Source: Spirochaetales bacterium
Lineage (GTDB): Bacteria > Spirochaetota > Spirochaetia > SZUA-6 > JAFGRV01
DNA length: 64,000 nt
Reading direction: 5' to 3'
Assembly (NCBI GenBank): GCA_016928415.1
Contig: JAFGKU010000048.1
Span: 2,083-66,082, forward strand
Shown here: piece after piece, positions 9,794 through 64,000 of the stretch
Numbering within the stretch: the stretch's first letter is position 1
How the letters are laid out: each line of letters starts with the position of its first letter
Program-made: the position numbers and the translations under genes
Notes under the pieces: model-generated
The model's database searches: none
The model's input: the letters and a program-made list of their open reading frames with translations, nothing else
What the model was told of the DNA's origin: nothing

Positions 9794-9822
9794 TTGTTTT
9801 TCTACAATTTTGGTAGTATATT
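9794..9822 (+). promoter_or_regulatory. Putative sigma70 promoter for the 1,907-aa lipoprotein
   Basis: TTGTTT-N17-TATATT about 100 bp upstream of the GGAGG RBS and the ATG at 9923. Confidence 0.45.
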
Positions 9823-9922
9823 TACTTTAGAAAAAATCAACGTGTACTTTACCTATAAAATATTCCACTTTATAATGAAAATCGTCGAAATATAGAGATA
9901 TAGGCGCATTGGAGGTATATAT

Positions 9923-15740: not shown

Positions 15741-18700
15741 ATGCGTTTTTCCAGAATAATCTCCATAATTCTTATACTATCCGGAACAACTTTGTTCTTG
15801 AATGCCCAGGAGGCTGCGGATAAGCCTACCGGGGCGCCTGTTGAGGATATCGCACCGGAAGCGACCCCGGTTCCCGCAATGGAGAATACTTCATCGAGTT
15901 CGGGACAACTGAATGTGTACACGAAGGTCAATGGAATGGACAACTGGGATTATACATACGACGTATCCGGTCTTGAACGGGGAATGTACAATATCATCAT
16001 AAAAGGTACGGACAAGGCGGGAAACATTTTTTACAGCAACCCGGCGAATGTTTTAATCGACCCGGAAAGCGACCTTCCCATTGCCAGCATCACCAACCCC
16101 GTGCCTGATATGCGGGTCGGCGGCGCCATTCTGAACATCGTCGGCACGTGTAACGATGACGATGCGGTAGGAAGGGTGGAAGTGCGGATTGACGAAGGCG
16201 AATTCAAGCCGGCCGAAGGCAAAGACTTCTGGTCGTACAAACTCAGCACGGAAGGCATGCCGGACGGGAGACACATGATCGGCGTCCGCGGCATTGATGT
16301 CAACGGGGTCACGGGCGAAATCATAACGCGTTCCTTTCACCTGGATACAAGCAAACCTTTCGGCCAGGTCACCAATCAACCGAGTGGCGTACTGTTAAGC
16401 GGCGGCAATGAACTGCAGGGCACGGTCGAGGACTTGAACGGCGTTACGGCCCTGTTCTCCAGTGAAGACCACGGCAAGACTTTCCAAAAACTCGACTTCT
16501 GGTTCAACCAGGAGGATAATAAATATCATTTCAAATTGTGGGTCGAAACAACGCGCATGGAAGACGGCTCGCAGGTCATCCTGCTCAAGAGCTTAGACGG
16601 CATGGGATCTGTAGGGCTGGCCAGTTTCCTTTTCTTTGTGGATAACAAGAAGCCGGTGATCGAGATTTTGTCACCGGCACAGGAAGAAAAGGTGAATGGT
16701 AATTTCTATGTGGCCGGCAAGGTACTGGATGAAGTTGGCATCAAATCGCTCACTTACAGTCACAGGGACAAGACAGAGGAAATTCCCCTGATACCGGGAA
16801 ACCTGTACTGGTTTGTCGAGATCGACGCGACGGGCAAGGGATCCAACACGGAGACGGTAAAATTCACCGTTACGGATAAGGCCGGCAACGTGGTGGAACA
16901 GAACACAAACATCAACATCGACCTGGAAGCGGACAAGCCGGTTGTCGTCATCGCGTATCCTAAGGCGGATTCGCCGGTCAGCGCGGCATTTGACGTCTAC
17001 GGTTTTGTGGACGACGACGATGAACCGGAATCGGTGGTCTGGACGCTGGACAGCAAGGCGCCGGTCACCATACCGGCCATAGACGGGTTTACCTTTCCGC
17101 TGGACCAACTCGACCCCGGGAAGCACACCCTTGCCGTCTACGGTATTGACGTAAACGGGGTCAAGGGAAACCCGGCCAAAGTGGAATTCACCGTTCAGGG
17201 CAGCCAGTCTTCTATCAACATAGAAACGGTAGCCGCGAAGGGTGAAAGCGTGAATTTTAAACCGGGCGCGGAGGTCAACCGGTTTGACAAGGCCGTGCTC
17301 CGGGGTAAGATCACGGAATTCCAGCCCTTCAAGAAGGTAAGGTATACCCTGGGCAACGGCGAGGAAAAGGATTTAAGCCTCCAGGGAACGGAGCAGAAAT
17401 TCATCAAGCAATTCACCATTCCCGTTCCTGAAAACCAGCCCTACGGCATCAATGACATCAAAATAACGGCCATCGATTCCCTGGAAAGAACAACGGAGTA
17501 CTACTCCTTTATCCATGTAACCAATTTTTCCAAGGCCGCCGCCAAATCCGGCATTTACATTGCAGACAGCCGCACAGATGAAGGACAGGCGGCCATTTCA
17601 AGGGAATATCCCTTATACGCATTTTTCCTGGGCGACAAGGTAAAATCGGTCGTGCTTGAACCGGACATTCCTCAGGCTGGGGTCTCGGAATCGGACGGTT
17701 CCATCACCATTGTACCTAACAGCGACTTTTCCGCCGCAACAACAAAAATAAAGGTAACGACGGTCAACGACGAGGTTGTTTATTCCGGATCAATTACCCT
17801 TAAAACGGACAGCGCGTATTCCGCGGACCCATTGCACAGTGCCGCGCTTACGCAGGCCCTGCCGAAATCCGGCTCCCGGGCCTTTTATCCCGGCCTTGCT
17901 TTTGCCAGCCAGGACGGGCAGACCAAACTGGAAGGTTCCTGCAATTCGGCAGTCGCCCGGCTGGAGTACAGCTTCAACAACAAGGACTATCGCGGTGCCG
18001 ATTACAAGCGTAAAAAAGAGGACCCGTCAAGCGTGTTCCAGCTCGCCCTTCCCAACAATCTGGGCTACGGCTACAACGAAATTTATGTGCGCCTGTACGA
18101 CGAACAGAAAGGAACGGCCCAGTACAAGACATTTTTCTTTAAAACGGATGCGGGCGGTTCGGCGCCGAATGACGCGGACGGCCTTTATTTCTCCGATGTC
18201 CGCACGGCGGCCGGCGATGAAATCAACCTGACCAGGGAAAAACCTTTTACAGGGTATTTCAACGGACGGGAAATAAAATCGGTTGCCCTGAAGCCGGAAT
18301 CGGCCTTCCTGAAGGCAGTCTTTGAAGGCCGCTCGGTGACCGTGCAGGCACTCGAGGAAGGGAAAAGCGGTCCGACAACCATAGAAGTGACGGCGGCAAA
18401 CAACAAGACGTATACGTCCAAAGCGTACGTCTTCCAGGCAAACGCCATCCCGCCGATTATAACCACCACATCCATGGAACCGGGCACCTGGGTCAACAAA
18501 AGCTTCACCATCGAGGGAACGGTGAACGAATCGACGGGTATCAAAACGATGGAATATTCAGTGGGCGGTAATGGTGACTGGAAGAAAATATCCCTGTCAC
18601 AGGACAAGGGTGCAATTCCTTTCAGCCAGGTCATCAATACCGAAGGAATAGAAGACGGAAAGATAGCGGTCTATCTCCACGCCGTCGACACGGGCGGCAA

Positions 18701-49343: not shown

Positions 49344-49757
49344 CCGGTTTTTCCTTACCAGGGATATCCAGATACATATACTCAAAACAGTACACTGGGA
49401 GTCCTATTATAATAATACTACAAATCTACTATACCAATTAATAGTATTATAGCAAATTTACTATATATATCGGTAAAAATGGAAGATAAGTGGCTTTATT
49501 TTCATAAAATCCCTGGCATTATTCAATCTCCCTTATACTATTCTATACATTTTTTAAGAAAAAATCTGGATGCCTGAACAATGACTTTTATTTAAGTAAT
49601 TCTTTATAATACAATAAAATATGCTGTTTAGTCGCCTGTATCCGGCCTTCAGGACCTCATTTTTTATCCAGTTTCCTGATTCAATATTGGAATTCCCGGT
49701 TAATAAATTATGGAAATTAACCGTGAATAAATGTATATTTATATCAGAGAAGGACTC

Positions 49758-50984
49758 ATGATTAAATACGGACTGATACTGGTAATCATTCTATTAATTT
49801 CTTTTTTGCCGGTTTATGCGGAATATTCCGATTTCTATGGTGACTATAGTGATTTTTGGCAGCTTTTTATCGATCCCAACACAGGCTTAACGATATTTCC
49901 AACATTACTAATACCCATAGGCGGCAAGCTGGAAGGAATGGGAACCGCTTATACCGCCATGGCAAACGATTCCGGTTATATCGAGTCAAATCCGGCGGGA
50001 AGTGCCGGGCTGGATTTCGACGAACTTGCCATTCTCCATCATGCCTGGATTGCTGATTCAAATATCGAAGGAATCATATATGCCAGCCGAATGGGGAATT
50101 TGGGATACGGTGTCAGCGGCAAATTCCTCTATATTCCCTTTACACATTACAATGCCTGGGGCGACAGGGCGGCTTCAGACTTTATTTCAGAATCAATCCT
50201 GACTGCCAATGTCTCGTACAACCTTTTTTCCAGCCCCTACTTTTACGGTCTTTTGATAGGTGTCAATGCAAAACTGGCTTACAGGAATATCCCGGAAGTC
50301 ATCTACCCCGGCCAAAGCACCTTGGGCGTGATGGGTGATTTCGGTATCCTGACGCGTTTTGATTTCCTGAAATTCTTTGTTTCAAGAAACAAGAATTTAT
50401 CGATCGGTGCCACGCTGAAAAATTTGGGACTTCCGGCCCTCGATGAACCTTTACCCACCCTTTTCTCCTGCGGTATTGCCTATACATTCATCAATCCCAT
50501 TACGCTGGCCGTGGATTACAATTTGCCGATCAGTTTTGACCCCGTAAATTACCCGGCCCAGCTCTGGTACCTGGCTTTCGGCATGAATATAGATTTTACC
50601 AAGTTCATCTCCCTGCAGGCCGGTTTTGTTCTCAAGGAAAATCCCAGGATCAGTATCGGTGCAGCCCTTGATCTTAACGAGGTACAGATAGTCACCAATT
50701 ATAACCTTGACCTGAGCGGAAGCCTGAATCCTGCTGATAAATTCAGCGTGGAGGCCAAAATCAAGCTGAATTACAAGGAACATATGCAACTGCGGCAAAA
50801 AGTGGATGAATTGTTTGCCAAAGGTCTGGAAGCCTATGCCGAAGGCGATTTTAAACTCGCATTGGAGTATTGGGAGGAAACTTTAAAATTGGACCCGAAA
50901 TTCAGCATTGCCCTTGAATATATCGAGACCACCCGTAAATTCATCGATCTGCAGAAAGATATGGAAGATAAACAAAAAATGTAA
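49758..50984 (+). CDS. UPF0164-family (FadL/PorV-like) outer-membrane protein with C-terminal TPR
   Basis: DPNTGLTIFPTLLIPIGGKLEGMGTAYTA..D....ESNPAGS and HHAWIADS; C-terminal TPR (ALEYWEETLKLDP). Confidence 0.85.
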   Translation: MIKYGLILVIILLISFLPVYAEYSDFYGDYSDFWQLFIDPNTGLTIFPTLLIPIGGKLEGMGTAYTAMANDSGYIESNPAGSAGLDFDELAILHHAWIADSNIEGIIYASRMGNLGYGVSGKFLYIPFTHYNAWGDRAASDFISESILTANVSYNLFSSPYFYGLLIGVNAKLAYRNIPEVIYPGQSTLGVMGDFGILTRFDFLKFFVSRNKNLSIGATLKNLGLPALDEPLPTLFSCGIAYTFINPITLAVDYNLPISFDPVNYPAQLWYLAFGMNIDFTKFISLQAGFVLKENPRISIGAALDLNEVQIVTNYNLDLSGSLNPADKFSVEAKIKLNYKEHMQLRQKVDELFAKGLEAYAEGDFKLALEYWEETLKLDPKFSIALEYIETTRKFIDLQKDMEDKQKM

Positions 50985-51389: not shown

Positions 51390-52577
51390 CTATTCTCCCG
51401 TCATTATCTTCTTTATTTTCGGTATCTCGTCGCCGAGCTTTTTCTCCATCAATTCAGCGGCGCCGCGCAGGGCATTAATGATGGCAGTTTCCTTTGACCC
51501 GCCCTGGGCATGCGTATTTTTCGCTTTCTCCAACGTCACCCTGGTTTCAAACAGTACTTTTCCATCAGCCACCCGGATAACCCTCAAGGTGGCGCGCGCC
51601 TCGGAGATAAAACCCTTTAATTTTTTACCCCTGAATTCAAGCTGGGCAACATTGAAGCAGTCGTTTAATACGACGACAAGGTACGAAACTCCCTTCTCCA
51701 GACTCAATTTCTTTATGGACTTCGTGTCTCCGCCGTAAATCTTCATGAATTCTTTTCCCATGAGACTGCCATTGTACATGGTAAAGTCAAAAGCCACATC
51801 TTTAAGCTTGTTGTAAACCGGATCAAAAATAACGGGGTCATTGGCCTCCCCTTCCTCCGATTTTTCCAGGACGAGTATCGTCGCCCTGTTGGCGGGCGGT
51901 TCGAAAAGAAAATCCCTGTTAAGTCCCTCAAATGTATAGGTATAACCCTTTTCACGGACCACTATACTGGCCCTGATGATATTCTGTGTATTGGCGTTGT
52001 CAAATTTCGCCACCTTGCAGGAAGCCTGGCCCAATTCATTCGTGTTCACGGAACCGGAAATAATCCCGCCGCCTTTAATGAATTTAAAGGTGACAGGCGC
52101 ATTGGCGACTATCCATTTGGACCCGCTGACATTATAGGTAAGGCGAACGGAAGGAACCACCTCCAGATTCAGCGTGCTCCCGTGTTTCTGGTTTCCCTTT
52201 TCGTCAACCCATTCGTTTTCATCCACATCGAGGGAGAGGGAAGATTTCAATTTATTCAATTCTATTTCAGCCTCTTCTGCATATGTTTCCGCTTCCTCGG
52301 AAGGTTTTGCCTTGTTTTCATTTTCAGCGAGAACGGAAACAAGAAGCCTGATCCCTTCAGAAATATATCCGCCGTCGATTTTATCCATTCCTTGTTCATA
52401 ATATTCCTTCATCCTGTAAACCGGATCATCGGAAGAACCGTCGGCTCCGGGAACAAAATCGGCGGACTCTTTTTGAAGAGCTTCCTCCCTGTCCGCTTCT
52501 TTTCCCGGTACGGTAGTGACGCAGCCCGCCAGGAATAATACCAGACAGATGGCTATATGGATTGAATTTCTAATCAT
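51390..52577 (-). CDS. Hypothetical lipoprotein
   Basis: Lipobox LAG-C; 395-aa ORF with an Ig-like segment (NAPVTFKF..TNELGQA) and a C-terminal CsgG-like strand (LRVIRVADGKVLF). Confidence 0.75.
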   Translation of the reverse strand: MIRNSIHIAICLVLFLAGCVTTVPGKEADREEALQKESADFVPGADGSSDDPVYRMKEYYEQGMDKIDGGYISEGIRLLVSVLAENENKAKPSEEAETYAEEAEIELNKLKSSLSLDVDENEWVDEKGNQKHGSTLNLEVVPSVRLTYNVSGSKWIVANAPVTFKFIKGGGIISGSVNTNELGQASCKVAKFDNANTQNIIRASIVVREKGYTYTFEGLNRDFLFEPPANRATILVLEKSEEGEANDPVIFDPVYNKLKDVAFDFTMYNGSLMGKEFMKIYGGDTKSIKKLSLEKGVSYLVVVLNDCFNVAQLEFRGKKLKGFISEARATLRVIRVADGKVLFETRVTLEKAKNTHAQGGSKETAIINALRGAAELMEKKLGDEIPKIKKIMTGE

Positions 52578-52626: not shown

Positions 52627-53337
52627 CTACCATTTTACATCAAAAACAAGATTTTTACCATTGATGATCAAATCTTTGACCGAAATAGAGTAAAAAAGTG
52701 TCCTTTTATCGGGCTGCAGGGTTCCCATTGATTTTTCATAAATGGCCGAGGGCACTGTTATGGAAAAAGAGAAATATTCATCAATGAGGATTTCATTCCA
52801 TATCGCCTTGTCTTCCGGGGTCAGATCCATATCCGGCAGCCTGATTTCTTCATGGAAAAAATGGTGAGAACCGTTTTTTATGAAAAACAGATCCTTTTCC
52901 CCCAGGCCATGTATTTCAGCCAGGTCATGAACCGTTTTAAATCTCAATCCCGCTGTGATGCTGTAAGAGTTCCCGTTTTCTTCCATTGCGTATTCTTCCA
53001 GTTCAACACCTTCTTTCCCGACAAGGAGTCTTTCAAAATCGGCTCTTGCCACGGGAAAGGGCAAAAAATCGCTACTGCGATTAGGGTTGTGCGCAGGCAA
53101 AAAATCGCTACTGCGATTAGGGTTGTGCGCGGGCAAAAAATCGCTACTGCGATTAGGGTTGTGCGCGGGCAAATCATAGGTTTGTGCCAGCTCTTTTGAA
53201 ATAAGATACCTTATGAAGAAGGTCCCTCCCCCATCATTATCCAGAACCAGTGAATTTTCCATGCTCAAACAGGAAGAGAGGATAATGATCGGAAAAAGGT
53301 AAAAAAGGATCCGGGTTTTCATGTCAATATTTTCCAT
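52627..53337 (-). CDS. Hypothetical lipoprotein carrying an in-frame 12-aa triplication
   Basis: Lipobox LSS-C; (LPAHNPNRSSDF)x3. Confidence 0.75.
   Translation of the reverse strand: MENIDMKTRILFYLFPIIILSSCLSMENSLVLDNDGGGTFFIRYLISKELAQTYDLPAHNPNRSSDFLPAHNPNRSSDFLPAHNPNRSSDFLPFPVARADFERLLVGKEGVELEEYAMEENGNSYSITAGLRFKTVHDLAEIHGLGEKDLFFIKNGSHHFFHEEIRLPDMDLTPEDKAIWNEILIDEYFSFSITVPSAIYEKSMGTLQPDKRTLFYSISVKDLIINGKNLVFDVKW
53059..53173. repeat. 36-bp tandem repeat, 3 copies plus a 7-bp partial, each with an internal hairpin
   Basis: GGGCAAAAAATCGCTACTGCGATTAGGGTTGTGCGC at 53059, 53095 (first base A) and 53131; internal hairpin AATCGC-TACT-GCGATT. Confidence 0.95.
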
Positions 53338-53415: not shown

Positions 53416-53450
53416 AAAAAAGGGCACTGCCGTGTTTACGGCAGTGCCCT
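53416..53450 (-). terminator. flaA intrinsic terminator
   Basis: AGGGCACTGCCGT-N4-ACGGCAGTGCCCT 13-bp stem followed by a U-tract on the minus strand. Confidence 0.88.
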
Positions 53451-53482: not shown

Positions 53483-54493
53483 CTATTCTTTCTGGTAGCC
53501 GTCCATTTTCTGTTCTTCAAGAACTTCAAGTACCATCCTGGCGCCGAGGCGTTTATATTCAGCCTGTTTCCTGGCTTCATTCCTGTCCTGCAGAATATGC
53601 CAGATTGATTCATCGTCGATCTGGGGTTCTTCAAGATCAAGTACGGCCTGATCATAGGTTACCTTGATATCTTTTACGTACGTGATAAAGTCACCGCCGA
53701 TGGCGTTGGCATCCCTGTAAATGATCAACCCAATGAACTTGATAAAAGGAACCGCCCTCGGGTACAGGGGATATTTCTGTAATTCGCGGTTTCTCACATC
53801 ACCTACGTAATTGGGATTGACCCAACCCCTGTTTCCCCAGCCTTCATAGTCCAGGTATCCGCAGGCATACCTTTTTTCTTCATATTTTTCGTTCATGAGG
53901 ATTACTTCAACGGCATGCGGGTAGTTGGCGCCATATATCGTCATATCGATACTCTTTATGACACCTACATTCTTTAAAACACCGATCCCGTCGAATTTTT
54001 CGCCCTTACCGATGTCGGCATCGGCAACGGTGAGTGATCCGTCCGCCGCTACCGTATCCTTGTCCTGGTAAGCTTGAATCTCAAACGGCGGTTTAATAAT
54101 GGCATACGAATTAAAATTGGACTCCGGGAATTTGATCCTGACACCAAGAATTTTTTTGCTTTTCATGTCCTGGCCCTTGTAATCCCTTGCATTGGCGGTT
54201 GTTTCCGCTTCCTTGGTAAAGCAGAGAGACTGCCTTGCAACTGTGGCTGACGATGATGCAAGGACCACCCTCCATTTTCCAAGTGCCAGCGACGATACCA
54301 TTTTCGCCTTTTCCTCTTCGGTAAACTGGGCTCCGGCCTCCCGGCTGTAGTTAATGAGTGTTCTTTCATTATCCCTGGGCGGGTCGCCGTAATCTGCTCC
54401 CAGTTCCGAAAAATCAATCAAAGTACTTGTCAAGGAAAATGCTAGACTACATGTAACCAGTAAAAAAATTCCAAAGAAAATTCCTCGTTTCAT
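53483..54493 (-). CDS. flaA: Flagellar filament outer-layer (sheath) protein FlaA
   Basis: Signal peptide; LIDFSEL, LGVRIKFP...NSYAIIKPPFEI, GIGVLKNVGVIKSI, NPNYV.DVRNREL..YPLYP and GGDFITY.KDIKV.YD. Confidence 0.93.
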   Translation of the reverse strand: MKRGIFFGIFLLVTCSLAFSLTSTLIDFSELGADYGDPPRDNERTLINYSREAGAQFTEEEKAKMVSSLALGKWRVVLASSSATVARQSLCFTKEAETTANARDYKGQDMKSKKILGVRIKFPESNFNSYAIIKPPFEIQAYQDKDTVAADGSLTVADADIGKGEKFDGIGVLKNVGVIKSIDMTIYGANYPHAVEVILMNEKYEEKRYACGYLDYEGWGNRGWVNPNYVGDVRNRELQKYPLYPRAVPFIKFIGLIIYRDANAIGGDFITYVKDIKVTYDQAVLDLEEPQIDDESIWHILQDRNEARKQAEYKRLGARMVLEVLEEQKMDGYQKE

Positions 54494-54533
54494 TTATAGA
54501 CTCCTTTCGCACTTAACTACGGTTTTATCTAAA

Positions 54534-54561
54534 ATTATAGTAATGGAGAAAGCTTTGTCAA
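54534..54561 (-). promoter_or_regulatory. flaA sigma70 promoter with A-rich UP element
   Basis: TTGACA-N16-TATAAT, with an A-tract upstream of the -35. Confidence 0.75.
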
Positions 54562-54811
54562 CGAATTTTATTTTTTTTTATGGAAAAATGGCCGGTTCTT
54601 CAATAAATCACAATTCTTCTACCCAAACGATACATTGAAACAAACCTGTATCTTCCGGACCCCGGGAAAAACAGCCTGCTTTTTCGAGATTAAAAAAATG
54701 ACTTAAAAATAACATATCGATATGCTGTAATTATAACTTTAATTGCCAGATATATAGCTGTTTTTTCGGAGGTTTTACACATTGCTTCTTGAAAGAAAGC
54801 AATGTTGGGGT

Positions 54812-55339
54812 CTATTTTACCATATCCTCTACATAACGCATTTCCAGTTTTTGTCCGGATTCCTCACCCCTGTTAAAGACCGGGACCTGGCCGTTGATGA
54901 AAAAAATAATGTCCTTGAGGCCCGGAAAATTAAATTTCAATGTATTGATGACACTTTGAAAAATATCAACATAACTTAAGGGAAATTCCTTGTCCAGAAA
55001 CAGTATATCCCTGGAGAAATTCAGGTATAAAACCTCCTCTTCCTCCTTGAATAAAAGTGACACGAGCCTGGTTTTATAGGGAAAAAGCAATGTGCTTTGT
55101 TTGTTCATTGGTCCGTATACAAGTTCTTCCAGGAGATTCTGGATATCTTCTTCCGTCGACTCCTTTTTGTTCAAATACCGTTCTTCACCAATCAGTTTAT
55201 TCGTGAATTTTTCGGGAAAAAAAAGAATCCGGCGTACGTAGCCGGCCCTGTTTACCAGATAAAAAATAAGGGAAAGCGTGAACAGGAATACGATTATTCC
55301 CGAGAAAATCAGCAGATAGTGTTTAAATTTTATTTCCAC
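54812..55339 (-). CDS. GerMN-domain membrane protein
   Basis: N-terminal TM helix; LLEELVYGP...LFP..TRL....LYLNFS and TL..NFP....IIFFING. Confidence 0.8.
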   Translation of the reverse strand: MEIKFKHYLLIFSGIIVFLFTLSLIFYLVNRAGYVRRILFFPEKFTNKLIGEERYLNKKESTEEDIQNLLEELVYGPMNKQSTLLFPYKTRLVSLLFKEEEEVLYLNFSRDILFLDKEFPLSYVDIFQSVINTLKFNFPGLKDIIFFINGQVPVFNRGEESGQKLEMRYVEDMVK

Positions 55340-55410
55340 GGAGCACCTCGATATTTAATGTTAAAAGCGGACTGCCTCAAGAACCGATGACTATCAGGAG
55401 GACCGCAAAA

Positions 55411-56448
55411 TCATTCTGTAAATCCCTTTGTCTTCTCAAATTTCGATACAAAATTAATGATGCCATTATACATGGAAGCACTCAACTTTTTCAAGTATTC
55501 AGAATCATTTAATAAAGCCGCCTCCTCCGGGTTTGTCACGAAACCGACCTCGATAAGGACGGACGGCATCTTGGCATTCCTGACGACGAACCAGGATTCC
55601 GCCTTGGTTCCCCTGCTTTCCGATATACCGCCCAGTTCCCTTGACATGCTTTCGATAATACTCTGTGCCAGAGTGATGCTTTCAATGGAAAACTCCTCCT
55701 CCAGCATGGTATTGAGGATGGGCAGAATATTTTTTTCATCCTCATCGAGTTTTTTCTCATCAATAAGGTCACGCCGGTAATCGATGGGCAAATACCAGAC
55801 CTCGAAGCCTTTGGCCCTTGTATTGAAACTGGCATTGGCATGGATGGAAACAAATATAATCGCTTCATTTTCCTTGAGCGGGATGCTGTTTGCCAGGTTT
55901 GTTCGTTCTTCCAGTTTCAAAAAAGTATCGTCAGAACGTGTAAGAACGATTTTTTTATCCGTATATTTTTCCTTAAGCATCGCATAGAGGGTGGTTCCTA
56001 CTTCAAGCACGACATCCTTTTCCAGGACCTTGAAACTCCCTGATTTGGTTTTGTGAGTACCTATCGCGCCAGGGTCCGTTCCCCCGTGGCCCGGATCAAT
56101 CATTATACAGGCCACTTTGGGTACGAACACCTCATCCGCGTTTTCTGCAAAATACTTTTTAATTGTCGCCGCCGCCTCAACCGGAAGCAGAATTGTACCG
56201 TTTTTATCCCTTTTCCATTCCCCCGTTTTTACCAGGAGGGAATAATCGAAAATAAGCCAGGGAGTATCAATCTTGAAAAGAACAACACAGTTATTCTTTT
56301 GTATACAACCCGTTTCGGTCACCGGATTCCAGTAAAGAAGGGCATTCACTTCCTGCAAAAAATCGGTAAGCCCGGTGCTCTCTGAAAAAACGGGTAACAC
56401 GATAATGAAGAGCAGTAATACCGTTACAATGCGGCTGATTTTTCCCAT
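55411..56448 (-). CDS. N-acetylmuramoyl-L-alanine amidase (Amidase_3)
   Basis: IDPGHGGTDPGA, EKDVVL, LTRSDD, FVSIHANAS and PSVLIEVGFVTN; start at MGKIS after GGAG. Confidence 0.93.
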   Translation of the reverse strand: MGKISRIVTVLLLFIIVLPVFSESTGLTDFLQEVNALLYWNPVTETGCIQKNNCVVLFKIDTPWLIFDYSLLVKTGEWKRDKNGTILLPVEAAATIKKYFAENADEVFVPKVACIMIDPGHGGTDPGAIGTHKTKSGSFKVLEKDVVLEVGTTLYAMLKEKYTDKKIVLTRSDDTFLKLEERTNLANSIPLKENEAIIFVSIHANASFNTRAKGFEVWYLPIDYRRDLIDEKKLDEDEKNILPILNTMLEEEFSIESITLAQSIIESMSRELGGISESRGTKAESWFVVRNAKMPSVLIEVGFVTNPEEAALLNDSEYLKKLSASMYNGIINFVSKFEKTKGFTE

Positions 56449-58064
56449 TTCTCCAACCTGTTTTTCACGTCTTTTCCTTCTTTTATATCGCATTTTAGCA
56501 CATCTATCAAATAAAGTCCGGCCTGCAGCCCGCCCTTGAGGAACGCTTTCCAGAATATGCTTCCCACGACAATATCATTGCTGTTCCCGGAATACGCGGA
56601 TACGCCGCCGAGTAAGACAAAACGGTCCCATTCATCATGCAGGGTATGGCCATGCCAATTATGATTTTGTTCCTTATCTATACAAGGAAGGGGGAATATG
56701 GATATGCGTTTTATTTTTGATAACGATGCTGGTAAGGATTCTGATTCTGGTACGTGATAGGCCGGCATCTTTTTGAACGCATCCCGGTTTTCCGGCAGGT
56801 CCAGTTGAAAAGCGGTATAAGCACCGTTGCCGAAAATAAATTCCTCCGTCTCCCGGCAATCTCCCTTCAAGACTACCGTGACCGCGCCGATTGCCTTTTC
56901 GGCCATTTTTTCCGCTTCCTCTCTTGTATCGGCACAGGTGATGATATTGCCGCATTTTTCAACATTATTCGTCGGAAAGACGACGGTACTTCCCGGGTCT
57001 ACACGTAAAAAAGACGCCTTCACCCCTACTTTTTCCGTTACGGAATCGAATCCTTTTACTTCCTTTACAATCCCCGGGATGGAAATAAAGGCGCGTTCAC
57101 AACTCGTCCTTTTGTACAACGGGGTCAAGTCTCCGGGGGGGAGCCCCACCGCTATTTTCAGGGCCGCCCGGGTCACTTCGACACCCGAGGAATAGGGGAA
57201 GGTCCACCCCGACATGTACCCTCCCGACAGCCTGGCCGCTATCTCCCCTATTACGGGCCCATTGCCTGCTATTTTTATGTCACCCTTGGCTGCACCCATG
57301 TCTATCCCCAGGGCCTTCACACCTGCCATGAAGACGTCCGCCGCGCGCCGCACCGTATCCCCGGGGAGGGACGTGGGCATCGTATGCCCCAGTTCCACGA
57401 AATACGGTTCAAAATAAATATGCCTGTCGGCGATTCCGCAAAGGGTGATTTGCCCCCCGTACACAACGGCATCGATACTCAGTTCCGGACCGTCTATGTA
57501 TTGTTCTGCGATAACCCTGCCCGAACGGGATAATTCCAGGGCGGACTCAAAGGCTTTTCTCAATCCGTTTTCCGAATCGACACGGCGCACTCCCCTGGCG
57601 CCCATGTTGTCCACCGGTTTCACGACCAGCGGAAAACTCAGTGTTTCAAGGATGCGGGATAAATCCGACCCGGCGGTCAGGCATGCAAACGCCGGGCTGG
57701 CCACACCGTGCTCCCTGAAAGCCTGCCGCATTTTCACCTTGTCGGTGGCTTTCAGGGCCGTCTCATAGGGCACGCCGGGCAGATGAAGGGCTTCGGCTAT
57801 GTAACTGACGGACGTGGAAAAATCCGTCCCGGCCGTAAAGACGCCGTCCAGCCCGTAAAGGTCCCTGTATTTTTCAGCCATGGCCACCAGGCCGTCCAGG
57901 TCTTTCAAATCAACGTTTTCAAAGTGGTCGGCCGGTTTCCTTCCTTCCGCTTCCGGATTCCCGTCCGCAACAATGACCTTCCACCCCATGTCTTTGGCAA
58001 TGGTTATGGCGGGAACCTGCATGACACCCGCCCCAAGTATTAAAATGACCTTTTCTTCTTTCAT
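56424..58064 (-). CDS. ATP-grasp ligase (amide-forming, L-amino-acid-ligase-like)
   Basis: ILGAGVMQ, DKVKMR, PLVVKPVDNMGARGV, EQYIDGPELS and GEIAARLSGG. Confidence 0.85.
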   Translation of the reverse strand: MKEEKVILILGAGVMQVPAITIAKDMGWKVIVADGNPEAEGRKPADHFENVDLKDLDGLVAMAEKYRDLYGLDGVFTAGTDFSTSVSYIAEALHLPGVPYETALKATDKVKMRQAFREHGVASPAFACLTAGSDLSRILETLSFPLVVKPVDNMGARGVRRVDSENGLRKAFESALELSRSGRVIAEQYIDGPELSIDAVVYGGQITLCGIADRHIYFEPYFVELGHTMPTSLPGDTVRRAADVFMAGVKALGIDMGAAKGDIKIAGNGPVIGEIAARLSGGYMSGWTFPYSSGVEVTRAALKIAVGLPPGDLTPLYKRTSCERAFISIPGIVKEVKGFDSVTEKVGVKASFLRVDPGSTVVFPTNNVEKCGNIITCADTREEAEKMAEKAIGAVTVVLKGDCRETEEFIFGNGAYTAFQLDLPENRDAFKKMPAYHVPESESLPASLSKIKRISIFPLPCIDKEQNHNWHGHTLHDEWDRFVLLGGVSAYSGNSNDIVVGSIFWKAFLKGGLQAGLYLIDVLKCDIKEGKDVKNRLEKWEKSAAL

Positions 58065-59845
58065 GGTGTACCGTCCCCGGTTTTTCTCGCATAAACTTCG
58101 AACGTGTCCCCCAGCTGAAAAAAACGGCTGATATTGAGGAATAGTGCATAAAAAAAGGGATGGACGGGTTTCTCCGGCTTTATAAACGGGAACCGTTCCG
58201 GATGATGTCCCGTAACCCGGAAGTGTTCCACTTTAAACCCGTATTTGCCCAGAATTCTTCGGCAGTTTTTCTTGTTCCAGATTGTATAATGGTCGGAGGG
58301 ACTCTGTTCAAGGAAGCTTCTTTTGTTCCTGCGTGCCGATATTCCCTTCCCGTACGGTGTGGCAAAAGCGAAAATTCCCGAAGGGGGGACCAGGGTGCTC
58401 ACCGTTTTTAATACCCTTTCAAGCAGCTTGAAATGTTCAATAACATACCACATGGTCACAACCGAAACACCCTTGAATAAAGGGCTTCCCTCATCCGTAA
58501 ATTCTTCAAAATCAATGACATAAGCCCTGATTTTGAGTTCCTTATTTATATAATCGACAGCTGTTTTGGATATATCCAGCCCCAAAGCATCAAAACCACG
58601 GGAAACGGCGGCGGAAAGAAAGGGACCGTACGCGCAGCCGATATCAAGAAGTCTTTTCCCTGCCGGATTTTTTACGAGGTTTTCAATAATCCCAGTCCGC
58701 TGCATTGAAACAGCCTTGATGTTTTCAAAATCATCCAGGTAGGTTTTACCGTACTGCTTTTTATATTCTGAAAAAAAATAATCCTTCTCATACCGCACCG
58801 GCTTTAGTCCCAGGGGGAAAAGAAAGGTAATCCCGCAGGCCCGGCATCGAAAGTAGGTTTTTCCGGGAAACCGTGCCGTTACCTCGCTGCTCCCAACCCG
58901 GCAGACCGGGCATTGCGCGGAAGGAACGGGCGCGCCGGCGTCTAAAAATACGGACACGAATTCGTACAGGGACTTGTTATCCCTGTACAGCCTGTCATAC
59001 CTTTCTATAGAGCCCGATAGGATATTTTTATCCGCCAGGATCTTTTTAAACCGGGCGAGTGACGGTCTGAGTACCCCTATTTCCGGGAAGCCCGCTTTCC
59101 GGCTGAGCCGCCTGTGATACGGTGTGGGATTAAAAAGAATGAGAGGCACCCGGTAAAAGAGGGCTTCAAAACAGGTGAGTCCGAAATGGGTAAGGACCAG
59201 GTCATAATCAGGTAAAAGGGATGAAACGTCCGTGCAGTCACGTATCACCTTTAACCCTTCAGGCCATTTTACCTGTTTAAAACCGGGCCCCTGAACAATG
59301 GTTATTTCCTCCGGATCAAAAATGTCATGATCCATTATAAGTGCAAGAATTTTACCGGTAAGGCCGGCTGAATCTTCCCCCCCAAAAGTGACGAGAATTT
59401 TCACTGAGGGAAAGGTGATTTTTTTTTTGATCCTCGCAGGACGCGGTTCAAAGGGTGTATGCGGCAGGAAAATATTCGGCGGCAGCGGGGAAAGGGACGG
59501 CATGGTATCGATCAGAAACGGCATGAGCGCCCTGGAGTCGCCTCCCTCATCAATGCCGATGACAGGGCCCCCCCGCTCGGCGAGTTCGTGGTAAAATTCC
59601 CTGTCCGTCTCCCTGTGGTCCACGAGTATAAAATCAAACCGGGAACTGCGGTCCATTCCGGAAATTACCGTGAAGGATTCCGCGCCTCCCCATGCTTCCA
59701 ACCGCTTTACGGTGTCCGTATCTTTGATATACAAATAAGGACTTACCTTTTTCGAAGTGTTGAGGTGTTTGCCCAGCATCAACACGCGCTTGAGGTGGCC
59801 CGTGCCGTCCCCGGCTCCAGTCCGGGGAACAAAGAGAATGTTCAC
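58061..59845 (-). CDS. Fusion of a PseG/SpsG-like GT-B domain, a Zn ribbon and a class I SAM methyltransferase
   Basis: GDGTGHLKR and LVTFGGED (PseG-like); CPVC..CRAC; LLDIGCAYGPFL and VTMWYVIEH. Confidence 0.8.
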   Translation of the reverse strand: MNILFVPRTGAGDGTGHLKRVLMLGKHLNTSKKVSPYLYIKDTDTVKRLEAWGGAESFTVISGMDRSSRFDFILVDHRETDREFYHELAERGGPVIGIDEGGDSRALMPFLIDTMPSLSPLPPNIFLPHTPFEPRPARIKKKITFPSVKILVTFGGEDSAGLTGKILALIMDHDIFDPEEITIVQGPGFKQVKWPEGLKVIRDCTDVSSLLPDYDLVLTHFGLTCFEALFYRVPLILFNPTPYHRRLSRKAGFPEIGVLRPSLARFKKILADKNILSGSIERYDRLYRDNKSLYEFVSVFLDAGAPVPSAQCPVCRVGSSEVTARFPGKTYFRCRACGITFLFPLGLKPVRYEKDYFFSEYKKQYGKTYLDDFENIKAVSMQRTGIIENLVKNPAGKRLLDIGCAYGPFLSAAVSRGFDALGLDISKTAVDYINKELKIRAYVIDFEEFTDEGSPLFKGVSVVTMWYVIEHFKLLERVLKTVSTLVPPSGIFAFATPYGKGISARRNKRSFLEQSPSDHYTIWNKKNCRRILGKYGFKVEHFRVTGHHPERFPFIKPEKPVHPFFYALFLNISRFFQLGDTFEVYARKTGDGTP

Positions 59846-60526
59846 TTAAAAGACACCTCCTGTCTTTTCTATCAATGCGATAATCTCCGGAATGTCCAGC
59901 GGGGTGCCCTTGTACAACGCCCCGTATACGGAAAGCACCTGTCTATAATCCTTTTCAGTATCTACCGTCAATGATAATCCGGAGCAGGCATACCCCGGGG
60001 GCGCCGGGTCTTCTATGATAACAAATTTATCCCTGTTATTGTAGAGGTGAGTGGTGATGTGTTCCCTTTCATAAGGGTCAACGCTTGCCAGGTCCGCCTC
60101 GTCCAGTGCCTTACGGGTAATCACTTCAACACCCGTTCCCACGGGCAGACCGGTAAAATGGCTTAAATCGGCGTTTTTCCTGGAATGAAGATCCATGATG
60201 GCCGTGGTCATGGCAGGTGAGACCAGGGGATTGTCCCCCGTTGCCCGCACGATCAAATCGGCCCTGAAATGTTCGGCGGCAAGGGCGTATCGTTTGAGGA
60301 CATCATCCTTTGGTCCTATAAACACGGTAAATCCTTCGCAGGCGGCGGGGCCGGACAGGTCCGATGCACTTGCTTCATCGGTAAGAAGGGCATACACATC
60401 CGCATCCACCTTTTTCAGGGCGGACATGGCCTGGCCGATCAATGTCTTGTCCATTACAGGCAGCAGGGCTTTTCCCGGCAACCGTCGCGAGTCAAGCCTG
60501 GCAGCCAGAAAAATCGCCCTTATCAC
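59846..60526 (-). CDS. spsF: SpsF-like acylneuraminate cytidylyltransferase
   Basis: ARLDSRRLPGKAL, DDVLKRY, VRATGDNP, REHIT and LTVDT..D; GTG start overlaps the upstream TGA. Confidence 0.85.
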   Translation of the reverse strand: MIRAIFLAARLDSRRLPGKALLPVMDKTLIGQAMSALKKVDADVYALLTDEASASDLSGPAACEGFTVFIGPKDDVLKRYALAAEHFRADLIVRATGDNPLVSPAMTTAIMDLHSRKNADLSHFTGLPVGTGVEVITRKALDEADLASVDPYEREHITTHLYNNRDKFVIIEDPAPPGYACSGLSLTVDTEKDYRQVLSVYGALYKGTPLDIPEIIALIEKTGGVF

Positions 60527-61488
60527 TCCTTGACTTCCCAATTCTGAATCAGGGTCCTGGCATCCATTTTAAACTTGAACCGGTTTTTTACGACCCATTT
60601 CCTGATGGCAAAAAATTCCCGTGACGAATTTATAAAATCCGTGTCTGAATTGAGGCAATAAAGGAACAACCTCGTGAAAGGCAAAAAGGCCATCTGCCCG
60701 GAATATTTAATGAATATGTTTTTCAGGTAAAAGAGCTTGTAGCTGTTATCCGGCGTGGCGTCTTCGGAAGGGGTTTCCACGGTATATTCTATGTGAAACG
60801 CCGTGTTGAGCTGTATCTTTTCACCCCATAGATGACTTCTGAATCCGAAATCCATTTTTTGCCAGTAGGGATTCTTGAGATAAGGATCATAACCGCCAAT
60901 CCGGCAGAATTTTTCCTTGTCATAAATTCCGCAGTAATCAAAGGGATAAAGGGAATGCTCCTCGTTTTTCCTGGGTTCCCAGGGGACAACCTTTATTTTT
61001 TTCTTCATGTACCCGGGTATCATGATGCAGGGCACGGATTCCAGCCGTGTATTTTTAAGCACCGGGACGGTACATAACAGGGAATTTATCCGGGCGTGTT
61101 CCAGGAATGACGGGGAAAAACGGGGAGCCTTCAATGACATGTCGCTCCAGAGCACCAGGAAAGAAGGGCTGTTTGATTCCACGGCCCCCAGGTTTATTTT
61201 TTCACCTGCCGTGATTTCATTGTGAAGAAGTAAAAAACGGATATCCGGGTATTTCCGTGACAGGGGTTCAATATCATACGACAAAGCTGAATCTTCCAGG
61301 TAAATGATTTCTGTATCAGCCGGTTCCTTTATTTCCTTTAAAAGATTTTCCCGGTGGAACCGGCCGCCCCGGTTAAGTATAAGAAGAGTCAAAGAAGGGT
61401 ATTTGTCCGGGTTCTCCGGGCGCTTCTTGCCTCCTATGATCGTATACGGCACGGATATGTTGTTAGAAGTTATAGGTATAGTACTCAT
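60523..61488 (-). CDS. Glycosyltransferase family 2-like protein
   Basis: GEKINLG, VLWSD, YPFDYCGIY, GGYD and YWQKMDFGFR. Start MSTIP overlaps the end of the spiro-SPASM gene. Confidence 0.7.
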   Translation of the reverse strand: MSTIPITSNNISVPYTIIGGKKRPENPDKYPSLTLLILNRGGRFHRENLLKEIKEPADTEIIYLEDSALSYDIEPLSRKYPDIRFLLLHNEITAGEKINLGAVESNSPSFLVLWSDMSLKAPRFSPSFLEHARINSLLCTVPVLKNTRLESVPCIMIPGYMKKKIKVVPWEPRKNEEHSLYPFDYCGIYDKEKFCRIGGYDPYLKNPYWQKMDFGFRSHLWGEKIQLNTAFHIEYTVETPSEDATPDNSYKLFYLKNIFIKYSGQMAFLPFTRLFLYCLNSDTDFINSSREFFAIRKWVVKNRFKFKMDARTLIQNWEVKE

Positions 61489-62953
61489 CACACATTTTAC
61501 ATAAATCCGGATAGTCTTCCCTGAGATGACCCATGAACCAGTCCTCCCCCTTTGACCAGATGGATGCCAAATCATCCTTTAAAATGTTGCCCATCACATG
61601 CGTCTTTTTGATGTCTTCCCTGCACGGCAGCACCGTACCGTCCAGGAGAACGGTGACATCCCGGATCAGGTGCCAGCAGGGGATTCTCTTTAAAGGGGAG
61701 AGGTCGGTTACCTTCCTGTCGGGCAGGGCGCCGCAAAAGGAATCGTACTTCTGGATGATGATATTTTCCGTTATTTTTTTATGGTTTAAGTAAAAATGTT
61801 CAAGGTCGTCTTCATTATCTGTCATCCGTACCGCCTGCAGATAGACATTGTCGGGAAACAGCTCCAATAGAAGGTCCTTGGTCCTGTTCGCCTCCTCGAA
61901 CCCCTGACCGCGCAGGGCATTATAAACGTTCTGCGTCCAGGCATCGAGGCTTAAAATCCAGGAGGGGAACCTCTTTTCATTGCACGCTATGGCCGAAAGG
62001 GTGGATTCGTTCCAGCCCAGTCCGGAAGTTTCAATAATAAGGTCCAGCTTTTCCCGTTTCAGCACGGAGTGAATCATTTCCGCAATCCGGGAATGGGATG
62101 ACGGGTCACCCCAGAGTGAAAAACTGATAACCGCATCGTCGCAGAAATCCACTATTTTATCAAGGATGCCGTTGAAATCAGCCGGGGCCATTTCCCCCTT
62201 GAGCGAAGTGATATTTTCCGTAAAGGAGGGATAGGGACAATATGTGCAGGTCTGAGGGCACCTTTCCGCTATCTGGATATTGAAGAAAGCCGGCAGGCTT
62301 CGTAGCAATTCCCGCTTTGTCGTAATTACTTCCCTGATTGATTCGGCATCTTTCCCGCCGTTTTCCACGATCTTCTTGACGGTCAGATAATCCCTTTTAT
62401 TATGGCTGGCCAGGTTCAGCCGGAGAAGCCTTAAATCCTTGGGGGATATCTCGGTTTCAATATCAAAATTATTAATATCATGTTTAATGATTTCGAAAAG
62501 CGAATCCCTTTTTATCCGGGAATCCGTTTCGCCCATCAGCCTGATCAGCTGGTTGATGATTGCCGGTTTGAGAATCTCCGGGGTAATCCCGTACGGGTAC
62601 CCGTCGGCGAAAGTATAATCGGCAAAATACCTGTGATGGTTTTCGTACATTTTCCGGCTTAATTCAGGATCAAGCAGGGGGCAGTCCGCGTAAAAATAAA
62701 AAACCGTGTCATACCCGGAAGCAAGACGCTTGAAGGTCTCGAGCAAACCGCTTAAGGTCCAGTCTTCTTTTTCTTCCTTGTCGAAACCGTTTGAATCCTT
62801 TATGGTGGGTTTGCAGAGGAGAACGGCCTTTTGAACGTCCGGCAGCTTATTTACGTATTCCGAAACCAGGGCAAGGGAATTCCTGCCATCCTTGACCTCG
62901 GAAAAAACATAAGGGGACAATTGAACGCCATTGATAATTGCAATATTTTTCAT
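61463..62953 (-). CDS. Spiro-SPASM protein (cytidylyltransferase-like, radical SAM and SPASM domains)
   Basis: YADCPLLD and YTFADGYPYG; intact CxxxCxxC (CPQTCTYC); SPASM region PCWHL..LPCRED..GN..CKMC. Start MKNIA after AGGAAG. Confidence 0.9.
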   Translation of the reverse strand: MKNIAIINGVQLSPYVFSEVKDGRNSLALVSEYVNKLPDVQKAVLLCKPTIKDSNGFDKEEKEDWTLSGLLETFKRLASGYDTVFYFYADCPLLDPELSRKMYENHHRYFADYTFADGYPYGITPEILKPAIINQLIRLMGETDSRIKRDSLFEIIKHDINNFDIETEISPKDLRLLRLNLASHNKRDYLTVKKIVENGGKDAESIREVITTKRELLRSLPAFFNIQIAERCPQTCTYCPYPSFTENITSLKGEMAPADFNGILDKIVDFCDDAVISFSLWGDPSSHSRIAEMIHSVLKREKLDLIIETSGLGWNESTLSAIACNEKRFPSWILSLDAWTQNVYNALRGQGFEEANRTKDLLLELFPDNVYLQAVRMTDNEDDLEHFYLNHKKITENIIIQKYDSFCGALPDRKVTDLSPLKRIPCWHLIRDVTVLLDGTVLPCREDIKKTHVMGNILKDDLASIWSKGEDWFMGHLREDYPDLCKMCDEYYTYNF

Positions 62954-63032: not shown

Positions 63033-64000
63033 TCAATATAAATACAACTTCGACAGTTGCATAACCTTTTCTATGAACGAAGGTTCCTTTAATTCATTCC
63101 TCATCATCCGTTCAATGTCCCGAATTTTAAGATTACCCGGTTCACCCTTGAGGACCGGCCTGTCACCTTCCGCATCGAATACCATTGTCTCGGTCCTGTC
63201 CGCGGCGGGATTCCAGGATTTCCATACCGGCTGAAGGGAGTATCTATAATTGGGATTCCCCGTGGCTGCAAACACAGCAAGGTATTGCATGATAACACGG
63301 GATAAATTCTCCCGGGATTTCCTGTTTGCCCCGGTAAAAAGGTCACGGGTCAATAATATCCCCAGGATCGTATCGGTGCCGAGGAAAAAAGGAATTTCAA
63401 GTGTATGAAAGGCACCGAGTCGTTTGGTCCATTCCACGGGAAAAGGACCTTTCCCCCGTTCCGCACAACCCCAGTCGAATCGATAGACATATACCGACGG
63501 TGCGTCACGGGTGGATGTTATCCGGGTCGCCAATTCATCCGCACACCGGGCTTTCCACCTCAAGCTGCCGTACTTTGCCGCGAACGCATACAAATCGGTC
63601 TTCCAGTCCACCTGCGTGGTAAAATAGAGAAAAAGCTTTGTCTCATCGCGGTTTGTGCCCAGGATAAGCGGGACCTTGTTCGGCCATGCCCCGGTTTCAA
63701 ACACCTTTCCCCCTTCCTCAGGGAGGACATAACCGTCCGCAATAATGGCAGGGTTTTCCGTCATGCCGAGAAAGTCATGTTCCTGCACTTCCAGGAGCTG
63801 TTTCACCGATTTCGAATAAAGGTATTTCCTCAATTCCTCTTTCGACATTCCCGAAGCGGCCTTTTCAGCGGCGTTTCTATCGGGAGCAAGGCGGTCCCTG
63901 ACCAGCAACCTGGCAACCATTCCCTCGGCGAATGCCAAAGCTGTCTCCCTGGATACAGTTAAATCATAAGCGCTCTCCACGACGGCACGATGAAAGAGTC
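63033..64000 (-). CDS. Type-B carboxylesterase, 5' part outside the window
   Basis: LFHRAVVESA at the window edge, IADGYVLP, VPLILGTNRDE, VYVYRFDW, GAFHTLEIPF and FAATGNPN. Confidence 0.88.
   Translation of the reverse strand, partial: LFHRAVVESAYDLTVSRETALAFAEGMVARLLVRDRLAPDRNAAEKAASGMSKEELRKYLYSKSVKQLLEVQEHDFLGMTENPAIIADGYVLPEEGGKVFETGAWPNKVPLILGTNRDETKLFLYFTTQVDWKTDLYAFAAKYGSLRWKARCADELATRITSTRDAPSVYVYRFDWGCAERGKGPFPVEWTKRLGAFHTLEIPFFLGTDTILGILLTRDLFTGANRKSRENLSRVIMQYLAVFAATGNPNYRYSLQPVWKSWNPAADRTETMVFDAEGDRPVLKGEPGNLKIRDIERMMRNELKEPSFIEKVMQLSKLYLY

Follow-up and report, generated by a model that had tools for sequence, protein, structure and literature searches.

What would a spirochaete make with a run of sugar-activating genes that begins with a radical S-adenosylmethionine (SAM) protein and leads into a peptidoglycan amidase and flaA? 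The question is raised by a stretch of 64,000 nucleotides (the window) from an uncultured Spirochaetales bacterium (assembly GCA_016928415.1, contig JAFGKU010000048.1), in which eight genes, all on the minus strand, span 53483-62953 in open reading frame (ORF) coordinates. In order they encode a spiro-SPASM protein, a protein that we call ORF2, a cytidylyltransferase, a fusion of a PseG-like domain with a Zn-ribbon and a methyltransferase (PseG-MT), an ATP-grasp ligase, an amidase, a GerMN domain protein and FlaA; families were assigned from Pfam and NCBIfam profile scores against the curated cut-offs, and coordinates are those of the window unless a locus is named. Our results suggest that the cluster most likely provides PseG- and PseF-type steps together with methylation and acyl ligation for a flagellin nonulosonate. 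We lean, with moderate confidence, towards a cluster that provides the late steps and the decoration in a pseudaminic-acid-type cytidine monophosphate (CMP)-nonulosonate pathway for FlaB flagellins, and we hold the single enzymatic steps with less confidence than the pathway. As part of this view we treat the spiro-SPASM to ATP-grasp genes (56424-62953) as one translationally coupled unit. The spiro-SPASM and ORF2 genes overlap by 26 nt (taking M30 as the start of ORF2), ORF2 and the cytidylyltransferase gene by 19 nt, and the PseG-MT and ATP-grasp genes by 4 nt; the cytidylyltransferase and PseG-MT genes abut (0 nt), and the ATP-grasp gene overlaps the longest amidase ORF by 70 nt. Beyond the amidase the gaps are 71 nt and then 318 nt. 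A sequence-only reading of this DNA had described six overlapping or abutting genes followed by GerMN and flaA on the same strand, and the coordinates and domain matches agree with it.

CMP-pseudaminic acid is made by the PseB-C-H-G-I-F pathway, which together with Maf transferases underlies flagellin glycosylation in Campylobacter and Helicobacter. The window organism resembles these bacteria in having a CTP_transf_3 enzyme, a PseG-like GT-B domain with the GxGHxxR motif, and NeuB, PseB-like and Maf-like genes. It differs from them in that the PseG-like domain scores 40.7 bits for TIGR03590 against an equivalog cut-off of 153.55 and is fused to a Zn-ribbon methyltransferase, that an ATP-grasp ligase, a GT-A-like protein and spiro-SPASM are added, and that the pathway genes are scattered over several contigs; moreover, no PseH-like match above cut-off was found in a 1.14-Mb Treponema genome (G102) that carries the operon's cytidylyltransferase and PseG-like domain. 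The cytidylyltransferase (59846-60541, minus strand) is of the CMP-nonulosonate type (PseF/SpsF-like). It matches PF02348 (CTP_transf_3) at 65 bits against a cut-off of 22.6, its residues R15, S18, R20 and K24 are invariant in eight orthologues, and among the NCBIfam models scanned the KdsB-type models alone gave weak matches. In a tree, the linked cytidylyltransferases group with enzymes from Leptospira-like nonulosonate (NulO) clusters and apart from KdsB-like enzymes, with an SH-like approximate likelihood-ratio test (SH-aLRT) support of 97. Here and below, Leptospira-like (family f17), Borrelia-like (families f5 and f6) and T. pallidum-like (G102) are labels that we inferred from the size of the genomes and the order of their genes, while Treponema and Brachyspira are names given by the source.

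The PseG-MT protein of 594 aa (58061-59845, minus strand) begins with the PseG-like GT-B domain, a candidate UDP-sugar hydrolase (residues 1-299; 58949-59845), and continues with a Zn-ribbon, whose CxxC pairs are CPVC at 312 and CRAC at 334, and a class I SAM methyltransferase (58061-58948; Methyltransf_23, 72.6 bits, residues 390-541). Eight residues of the PseG-like domain (G14, G16, H17, R20, D76, D99, E227 and H244) are invariant in 12 orthologues. A profile built from these domains matches the solved C. jejuni PseG (3hbm_A) with an E value of 1.9e-8, aligning GtGHlkR on GFGHIKR; the single domain sequence found nothing in the PDB by phmmer. In C. jejuni PseG, the His of this N-terminal GxGHxxR motif is used as the base. 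No better PseG candidate was found in the window's own genome (G000, 85% complete) or in the Treponema genomes G102 and G015.

These functions are also joined by gene fusions. In three Treponema genomes (G102, G015 and G270) the cytidylyltransferase, PseG-like domain, Zn-ribbon and methyltransferase, which are two abutting genes in the window, form one ORF of 862, 881 and 844 aa, respectively (L038:11328-13916, L039:5320-7965 and L040:11441-13975). The gene order in G102 agrees with the annotations of TPASS_0285, 0289, 0290 and 0291 in the accessible text of PMC4403809. Leptospira-like loci that seem to hold a spiro-SPASM/cytidylyltransferase pair have a cytidylyltransferase ORF of 526-543 aa, and in the one aligned (L045) its C-terminal half is PseG-like; in the pair locus of family f38 the cytidylyltransferase is followed by an ORF of its own for a diverged PseG-like protein. 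Both PseG-like sequences share all eight invariant residues listed above. In these two loci a gene for a SurA-like periplasmic peptidyl-prolyl isomerase lies directly 5' of spiro-SPASM (L045:7831-8901, Leptospira-like; L056:7528-8613, f38).

Gene order was compared at two depths. A diverse sample of 20 loci falls by gene content into groups of 5, 2, 3, 5 and 5. The first five carry spiro-SPASM, ORF2, cytidylyltransferase, PseG-MT, ATP-grasp and amidase genes, with flaA next in four of them and the fifth locus ending first; two end after PseG-MT; three are without ORF2 and ATP-grasp and continue into the amidase and flaA; five have spiro-SPASM and the cytidylyltransferase only; and in the last five spiro-SPASM stands alone. 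Spiro-SPASM thus adjoins the cytidylyltransferase in 15 of the 20, and the conserved core is spiro-SPASM, the cytidylyltransferase and the PseG-like domain. Closer to the window, 50 loci extend for at least 9 kb beyond spiro-SPASM on its downstream side, and 47 of them keep the whole order through flaA, which argues that it is not due to chance; these 50 were drawn from the 80 nearest relatives and are not independent of one another. The relatives are uncultured Spirochaetales and Spirochaetaceae, Sediminispirochaeta, Marispirochaeta, Oceanispirochaeta, Breznakiella and Rectinemataceae. In one genome (G296) about 2.1 kb are inserted between the PseG-MT and ATP-grasp genes (L043:13833-15944).

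The remainder of a nonulosonate pathway can be found elsewhere in the window organism's genome. It encodes a NeuB-family synthase (214 bits, contig C234), so that the lack of a nonulosonate synthase, which would have spoken against the sequence-only reading, was not what we found; a PseB-like gene (304 bits) and four Maf-like genes are present as well. The operon cytidylyltransferase is the sole CTP_transf_3 match both in this genome and in G102. The proposed tie to nonulosonate synthesis of the pseudaminic-acid type is thus upheld by the single CTP_transf_3 gene and by the GxGHxxR motif, although not by the PseG equivalog score. Phylogenetic profiling had been suggested as a check on this tie. 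Across 301 sampled Spirochaetota genomes, TIGR04321 (spiro-SPASM) was found in 287, and in none of the eight genomes of families f5 and f6 (1.0-1.8 Mb); spiro-SPASM and NeuB were found together in 282 and neither was found in nine, with five genomes giving a match to the one and five to the other only (mostly incomplete genomes). All eight small f5/f6 genomes are among the nine. The co-distribution agrees with the pathway, yet weakly, amounting essentially to one shared loss. According to the part of PMC7431986 available, Leptospira FlaB1-3 retain the Ser motifs that are glycosylated, and in B. burgdorferi FlaB these motifs are replaced; that neither spiro-SPASM nor NeuB was found in f5 and f6, if these are indeed Borrelia-like, agrees with the replaced serines.

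The ATP-grasp ligase (56424-58064, minus strand) is an addition to the known pathway. It is of the L-amino-acid-ligase type, with PF18603 (LAL_C2) at 59.8 bits against 29.4 and PF13535 (ATP-grasp_4) at 52.4 against 27, and ends in a 138-aa extension (residues 409-546) to which no kind is assigned. With its ATP-grasp_4/ATP-grasp_3 and LAL_C2 domains it resembles BacD, PylC and Ddl, but it differs from these in that all its equivalog scores are far under cut-off and in the company that its orthologues keep. We found orthologues away from the operon in five other genomes (Treponema, Leptospira-like, Brachyspira and family f16). In three of the five, those of f16, Brachyspira and the Leptospira-like group (L061:7579-9810, L062:7170-9341 and L064:7719-10055), the ligase is fused to a C-terminal flavin mononucleotide (FMN)-binding FMN_dh domain whose best matches are L-lactate dehydrogenase/oxidase (LldD-like) and MftD. 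The fusion points to a hydroxy- or keto-acid partner of the ligase rather than an amino acid. G102 has a separate FMN_dh gene, together with a Cof-type phosphatase gene, 3' of the operon. No ATP-grasp orthologue was found in five small f5/f6 genomes.

This partnership fits the one flagellin glycan of a spirochaete whose structure is known. The accessible portion of PMC13439194 describes an amide-linked 2-methoxy-4,5,6-trihydroxy-hexanoyl group on the T. denticola glycan. Such a glycan calls for a nonulosonate core, an acid in amide linkage and a single O-methylation; the operon offers CMP-activation, a ligase and a methyltransferase. An alpha-hydroxy-acid flavoenzyme, an O-methyltransferase and an amide-forming ligase would together match the needs of a chain of this type, and the fusion of ATP-grasp with a lactate-oxidase-like FMN domain fits its 2-methoxy-hydroxyacyl nature. 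The idea that methylation and ATP-grasp amide ligation build an acyl side chain has therefore gained support from the cytidylyltransferase-PseG-methyltransferase and ATP-grasp/FMN fusions, while the enzymatic steps themselves stay conjectural. The T. denticola case differs in that the window organism is an uncultured Spirochaetales relative whose nearest loci are at most 53% identical, and in that T. denticola-group spiro-SPASM lacks the radical-SAM site. We found no gene assignment for the acyl-methoxy side chain in the texts accessible to us. The cluster brings forward candidates for each step in making it: the ATP-grasp enzyme and its FMN partner for hydroxy acids, the methyltransferase with its fusion to PseG and PseF functions, and two proteins for which there is no explanation as yet.

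The same ligase could be thought to act on the cell wall. The ATP-grasp enzyme, the amidase and the GerMN protein would then reshape the peptidoglycan that surrounds the periplasmic flagella, with the sugar genes serving to decorate peptidoglycan or a lipid. The 70-nt overlap of the ATP-grasp and amidase ORFs, the weak NCBIfam matches to Ddl-type ATP-grasp ligases, which act on peptidoglycan precursors, and the conserved amidase-GerMN-flaA order are in keeping with such a role. However, the ATP-grasp orthologue is not beside the amidase in G102, G015, G114, G130 or G080, three of these five orthologues are fused to the alpha-hydroxy-acid FMN domain, and f5/f6 genomes in which the amidase is retained gave no match to the ligase. 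We consider a role of this kind quite improbable.

Several observations weigh against the nonulosonate pathway as the home of this cluster. The TIGR03590 match of the PseG-like domain lies far under the equivalog cut-off and covers model positions 164-266, the tree leaves open whether the linked cytidylyltransferases are one orthologous group, and the NeuB gene has no pse neighbours in its own genome. Searches of that genome (85% complete) by tblastn with the FMN_dh and Cof-phosphatase of G102 and with the fused FMN domains found no homologue. The co-distribution of spiro-SPASM and NeuB, resting mainly on the one f5/f6 loss between two otherwise near-universal genes, is weak as independent evidence. 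In Leptospira-like G114, which has seven CTP_transf_3 genes, the NulO cluster contains separate cytidylyltransferases and a better PseG (93 bits), and the spiro-SPASM-linked pair of that genome could serve another product. No experiment on these genes was found, and for the T. pallidum locus tags the searches gave only a gene-fusion table and an in-silico annotation list. Lastly, a glycan structure is known for T. denticola only, and the accessible text of a 2022 preprint describes Leptospira glycans as uncharacterised.

The G114 genome leads to the most serious alternative, namely that the triad of spiro-SPASM, cytidylyltransferase and PseG-like domain makes a second CMP- or nucleoside diphosphate-activated sugar acid for some other periplasmic or envelope glycoconjugate, with the Treponema cytidylyltransferase serving both products. 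Besides the coexistence of the triad with a full NulO cluster that has its own cytidylyltransferases and 93-bit PseG, the position of the triad behind a SurA-like periplasmic chaperone gene in the Leptospira-like and f38 genomes would suit this, as would the abutment of the operon on a peptidoglycan amidase in eight families. On the other hand, G102 and the window's own genome have a single CTP_transf_3 gene beside NeuB, PseB-like and Maf genes, and in them the nonulosonate must be among the products that the enzyme serves. The triad, like NeuB, was not found in the eight sampled f5/f6 genomes, and the serines of B. burgdorferi FlaB are replaced (PMC7431986, in the part available). A second sugar is in our view unlikely, and the flagellin nonulosonate remains the reading that we prefer.

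What does the spiro-SPASM protein contribute? The gene (61463-62953, minus strand; longest ORF to 63013) scores 576.2 bits for TIGR04321 against a cut-off of 250 (model positions 2-510), 36.8 bits for PF04055 (radical SAM) against 29.5 and 36.6 bits for PF13186 (SPASM) against 21.5; TIGR04085 (SPASM), at 19.7 bits against 27, is below threshold. The CxxxCxxC motif reported by the sequence-only reading is indeed present, as CPQTCTYC (residues 252-259, counted in the longest ORF, which has 516 aa and its start at 63013). The AlphaFold2 (AF2) model, with a predicted local distance difference test (pLDDT) score of 90.2, shows an N-terminal cytidylyltransferase fold, a radical-SAM barrel and a C-terminal Cys-rich domain. 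Foldseek matched the N-terminal part to 6oew, KdsB and IspD, the best being 6oew, a structure that ranks first in the PDB for the neighbouring cytidylyltransferase too (90 bits). The N-domain is without the Arg/Ser/Arg/Lys CTP-binding motif that is invariant in the true cytidylyltransferase. A complex prediction for spiro-SPASM residues 21-516 with the cytidylyltransferase gave a score of 0.00 and is neutral on a pairing of the N-domain with the enzyme. The C-terminal part matches SuiB, BtrN, anSME, DesII and BlsE. We found no paper on spiro-SPASM.

The SPASM domain typically has seven conserved cysteines for two auxiliary clusters. Spiro-SPASM does not have this set: just four positions, C446, C464, C505 and C508, are Cys in every sequence compared (48 of 48 ORFs and 81 of 81 sequences), C427 being present in six of 21 aligned orthologues. 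We describe the C-terminal domain as a putative four-cysteine SPASM/twitch-like domain. In the predicted structure the barrel and Cys-rich domain resemble BtrN (E 6e-12, 20% identity), DesII and BlsE. These radical SAM enzymes act on sugars or nucleotide sugars, by oxidation, deamination or decarboxylation. BtrN has a single auxiliary cluster, and the four invariant cysteines would suffice for one. Spiro-SPASM differs from these enzymes in its additional N-terminal cytidylyltransferase-like domain and in the frequent loss of CxxxCxxC described below.

Most SPASM enzymes are maturases, and spiro-SPASM might likewise modify a flagellar or periplasmic peptide or protein, with the sugar genes as incidental neighbours. 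Peptide maturases (SuiB, CteB, SkfB and anSME) are among the structures that it matches best, and the PF13186 match, the fold and weak peptide-maturase NCBIfam matches give it a general likeness to anSME, SuiB, CteB, PqqE and MftC. But the full seven-cysteine set is missing, only the four C-terminal cysteines being conserved, and no small precursor gene is conserved beside spiro-SPASM. Its neighbours and their fusions belong to sugar pathways, its N-terminal domain has the cytidylyltransferase fold and is a paralogue of the very enzyme that it adjoins in most diverse loci, and the sugar-acting BtrN, DesII and BlsE match as well. A maturase role is in our judgement very improbable.

The sequence-only reading had radical-SAM chemistry building a T. 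denticola-type glycan, and this part of it could not be maintained. CxxxCxxC is intact in 10 of 21 aligned spiro-SPASM orthologues and in 17 of 41 genomes examined (missing in 24). In the set formed by the window protein and its 80 nearest relatives, 60 of 81 sequences have the intact motif, 20 have other residues in place of all three cysteines, and one does not cover the site; 58 of 120 homologues of a Treponema spiro-SPASM are without it. The motif is gone from the T. denticola-group protein (89% identical to that of Treponema sp. OMZ 788), from those of T. pedis, T. phagedenis and T. vincentii, from a protein named TP_0285, and from all 65 listed relatives of the Brachyspira protein, including those of B. 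intermedia, B. hampsonii and B. pilosicoli. The T. denticola glycan consequently cannot be the product of radical chemistry by this protein, while the intact site of the window protein means that a radical step may still occur in this organism. Two simple accounts of the loss were rejected. It is not coupled to loss of operon genes, as the motif-less L088, L104, L110 and others retain the full order, and it is not accompanied by decay of the barrel, whose mean pairwise identity is 29.1% among the 11 motif-less proteins and 29.3% among the 10 intact ones.

It follows that the conserved role of spiro-SPASM does not depend on a canonical radical-SAM cluster. We tentatively propose, as a possibility rather than as our expectation, that it is a nucleotide-sugar-binding iron-sulphur protein with an optional radical-SAM site: where the site is intact, the protein would add a BtrN/DesII-like step on a CMP- or UDP-linked nonulosonate precursor, and where the motif is missing its barrel and four-cysteine domain, which are as well conserved, would retain a second, non-radical role in the same pathway. 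If this is true, the site-intact spirochaetes (this organism, the Leptospira-like genomes, Brucepastera and many Spirochaetales) should carry a flagellin glycan chemotype unlike that of T. denticola, which would belong to a motif-less group made up of Treponema (the denticola, pedis, phagedenis and vincentii groups), the T. pallidum-like genome and Brachyspira. Such glycan differences between lineages can be checked directly by mass spectrometry. If the site was lost repeatedly while the protein was retained, this would also be a natural series of radical-SAM pseudoenzymes. That the signature site is dispensable in the very species with a known glycan redirects the experiments that would be done on spiro-SPASM.

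ORF2 (60523-61488, minus strand) had been called GT2-like, a label that holds for its fold but not for its sequence or its motif. Three orthologues matched no Pfam family at E<=10 and there was no NCBIfam match; of the 262 homologues, about 321 aa long, a few are named 'GT2 family' by the source, and a precomputed PF00535 assignment is present in one of the 120 listed. The AF2 model (pLDDT 86.5) has a glycosyltransferase A (GT-A) fold, with polypeptide GalNAc-transferases as the top Foldseek matches (E 7e-13, template modelling (TM) scores 0.57-0.65); a profile search of the PDB with ORF2 gave nothing meaningful. The DxD motif is degenerate, the column reading WSDM with its lone Asp replaced by Asn or Thr in some of 28 sequences. 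ORF2 was found in 16 of 101 sampled Spirochaetota genomes and is thus confined to a part of the phylum. The model suggests a GT-A-fold accessory protein of a lineage-limited family.

The amidase, GerMN and flaA genes appear to have a history of their own. They encode an N-acetylmuramoyl-L-alanine amidase (55411-56493; Amidase_3, 171.9 bits), a GerMN (Germane) domain protein with a hydrophobic N-terminal segment (54812-55339; PF10646, 43.2 bits) and the flagellar filament sheath protein FlaA (53483-54493; PF04620, 222 bits), all on the minus strand. Three f5 genomes have an Amidase_3 gene with flaA about 770 nt behind it on the same strand, and spiro-SPASM, NeuB and ATP-grasp were not found in those genomes. 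The amidase-(GerMN)-flaA block thus either predates its junction with the glycan genes or is independent of it. A consensus sigma-70 match, TTGACA-16-TATAAT (12/12; 54534-54561, minus strand), lies 5' of flaA, and an intrinsic-terminator-like hairpin with a 13-bp stem and a T run (53421-53450, minus strand) lies 3' of it; a promoter-like site (11/12; 55494-55465, minus strand) precedes the GerMN gene. From these signals flaA is probably also a separate unit, with read-through from upstream possible; according to the accessible text of PMC9481697, flaA shares a transcript with four ORFs 5' of it in T. denticola. The linkage to the amidase and flaA had been taken to support a flagellar or envelope target, and it loses this force with an amidase-flaA pair that is kept where the glycan genes were not found and a flaA that probably has its own promoter and terminator. 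In published structures, FlaA-type sheath proteins contact FlaB glycans (10.1101/2022.03.03.482903 and PMC13144727, each in the part available). The neighbourhood of glycan genes and flaA may have functional meaning and is compatible with a flagellar theme; by itself it is no evidence for the target. Two f6 genomes of the same class (G145 and G245, 99% complete) have an Amidase_3 gene and no match to FlaA (PF04620), spiro-SPASM or NeuB.

The domain identities, fusions, gene order and phyletic patterns given above are observations, and from them we infer the enzymatic steps, their order and the flagellin target as follows. PseB-like and aminotransferase genes elsewhere in the genome would give a UDP-4-amino-4,6-dideoxy sugar, to whose amino group the ATP-grasp ligase would join a carboxylic acid in place of acetylation by PseH; an alpha-hydroxy or alpha-keto acid is the probable origin of this acid. 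The Zn-ribbon methyltransferase may then carry out an O-methylation, after which the PseG-like domain would remove UDP, the NeuB-family synthase on C234 would add the three carbons of phosphoenolpyruvate, and the cytidylyltransferase would form the CMP-sugar. Maf-type transferases are the candidates to place the product on Ser/Thr of the FlaB flagellins. Spiro-SPASM would take part as a nucleotide-sugar-binding iron-sulphur protein, which in this organism may add a BtrN/DesII-like radical step but whose conserved role would need no such site, and ORF2 as a GT-A-like accessory protein; the amidase, GerMN protein and FlaA would be a neighbouring older block.

Other genes in the window were noted in passing. 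The gene 5' of spiro-SPASM, on the same strand, encodes a 568-aa carboxylesterase (COesterase, 286 bits; 63033-63998 in the window and L059:1116-2822). It lies about 80 nt from the likely spiro-SPASM start at 62953 and was not seen beside spiro-SPASM in the other Pfam-annotated loci. Beyond the flaA terminator are two minus-strand ORFs, 51390-52577 (395 aa) and 52627-53337 (236 aa), with no Pfam or NCBIfam match, and a UPF0164 (PF03687) protein is encoded at 49731-50984 on the plus strand. An Rfam scan of positions 1-10000 gave no match. At the far end of the window, a stop-free frame of 3086 codons (1-9258, minus strand) runs off the window start, and two giant proteins of 1907 and 1800 aa with Big_7/Big_13 Ig-like domains are encoded at 9923-15646 and 15741-21143 on the plus strand.

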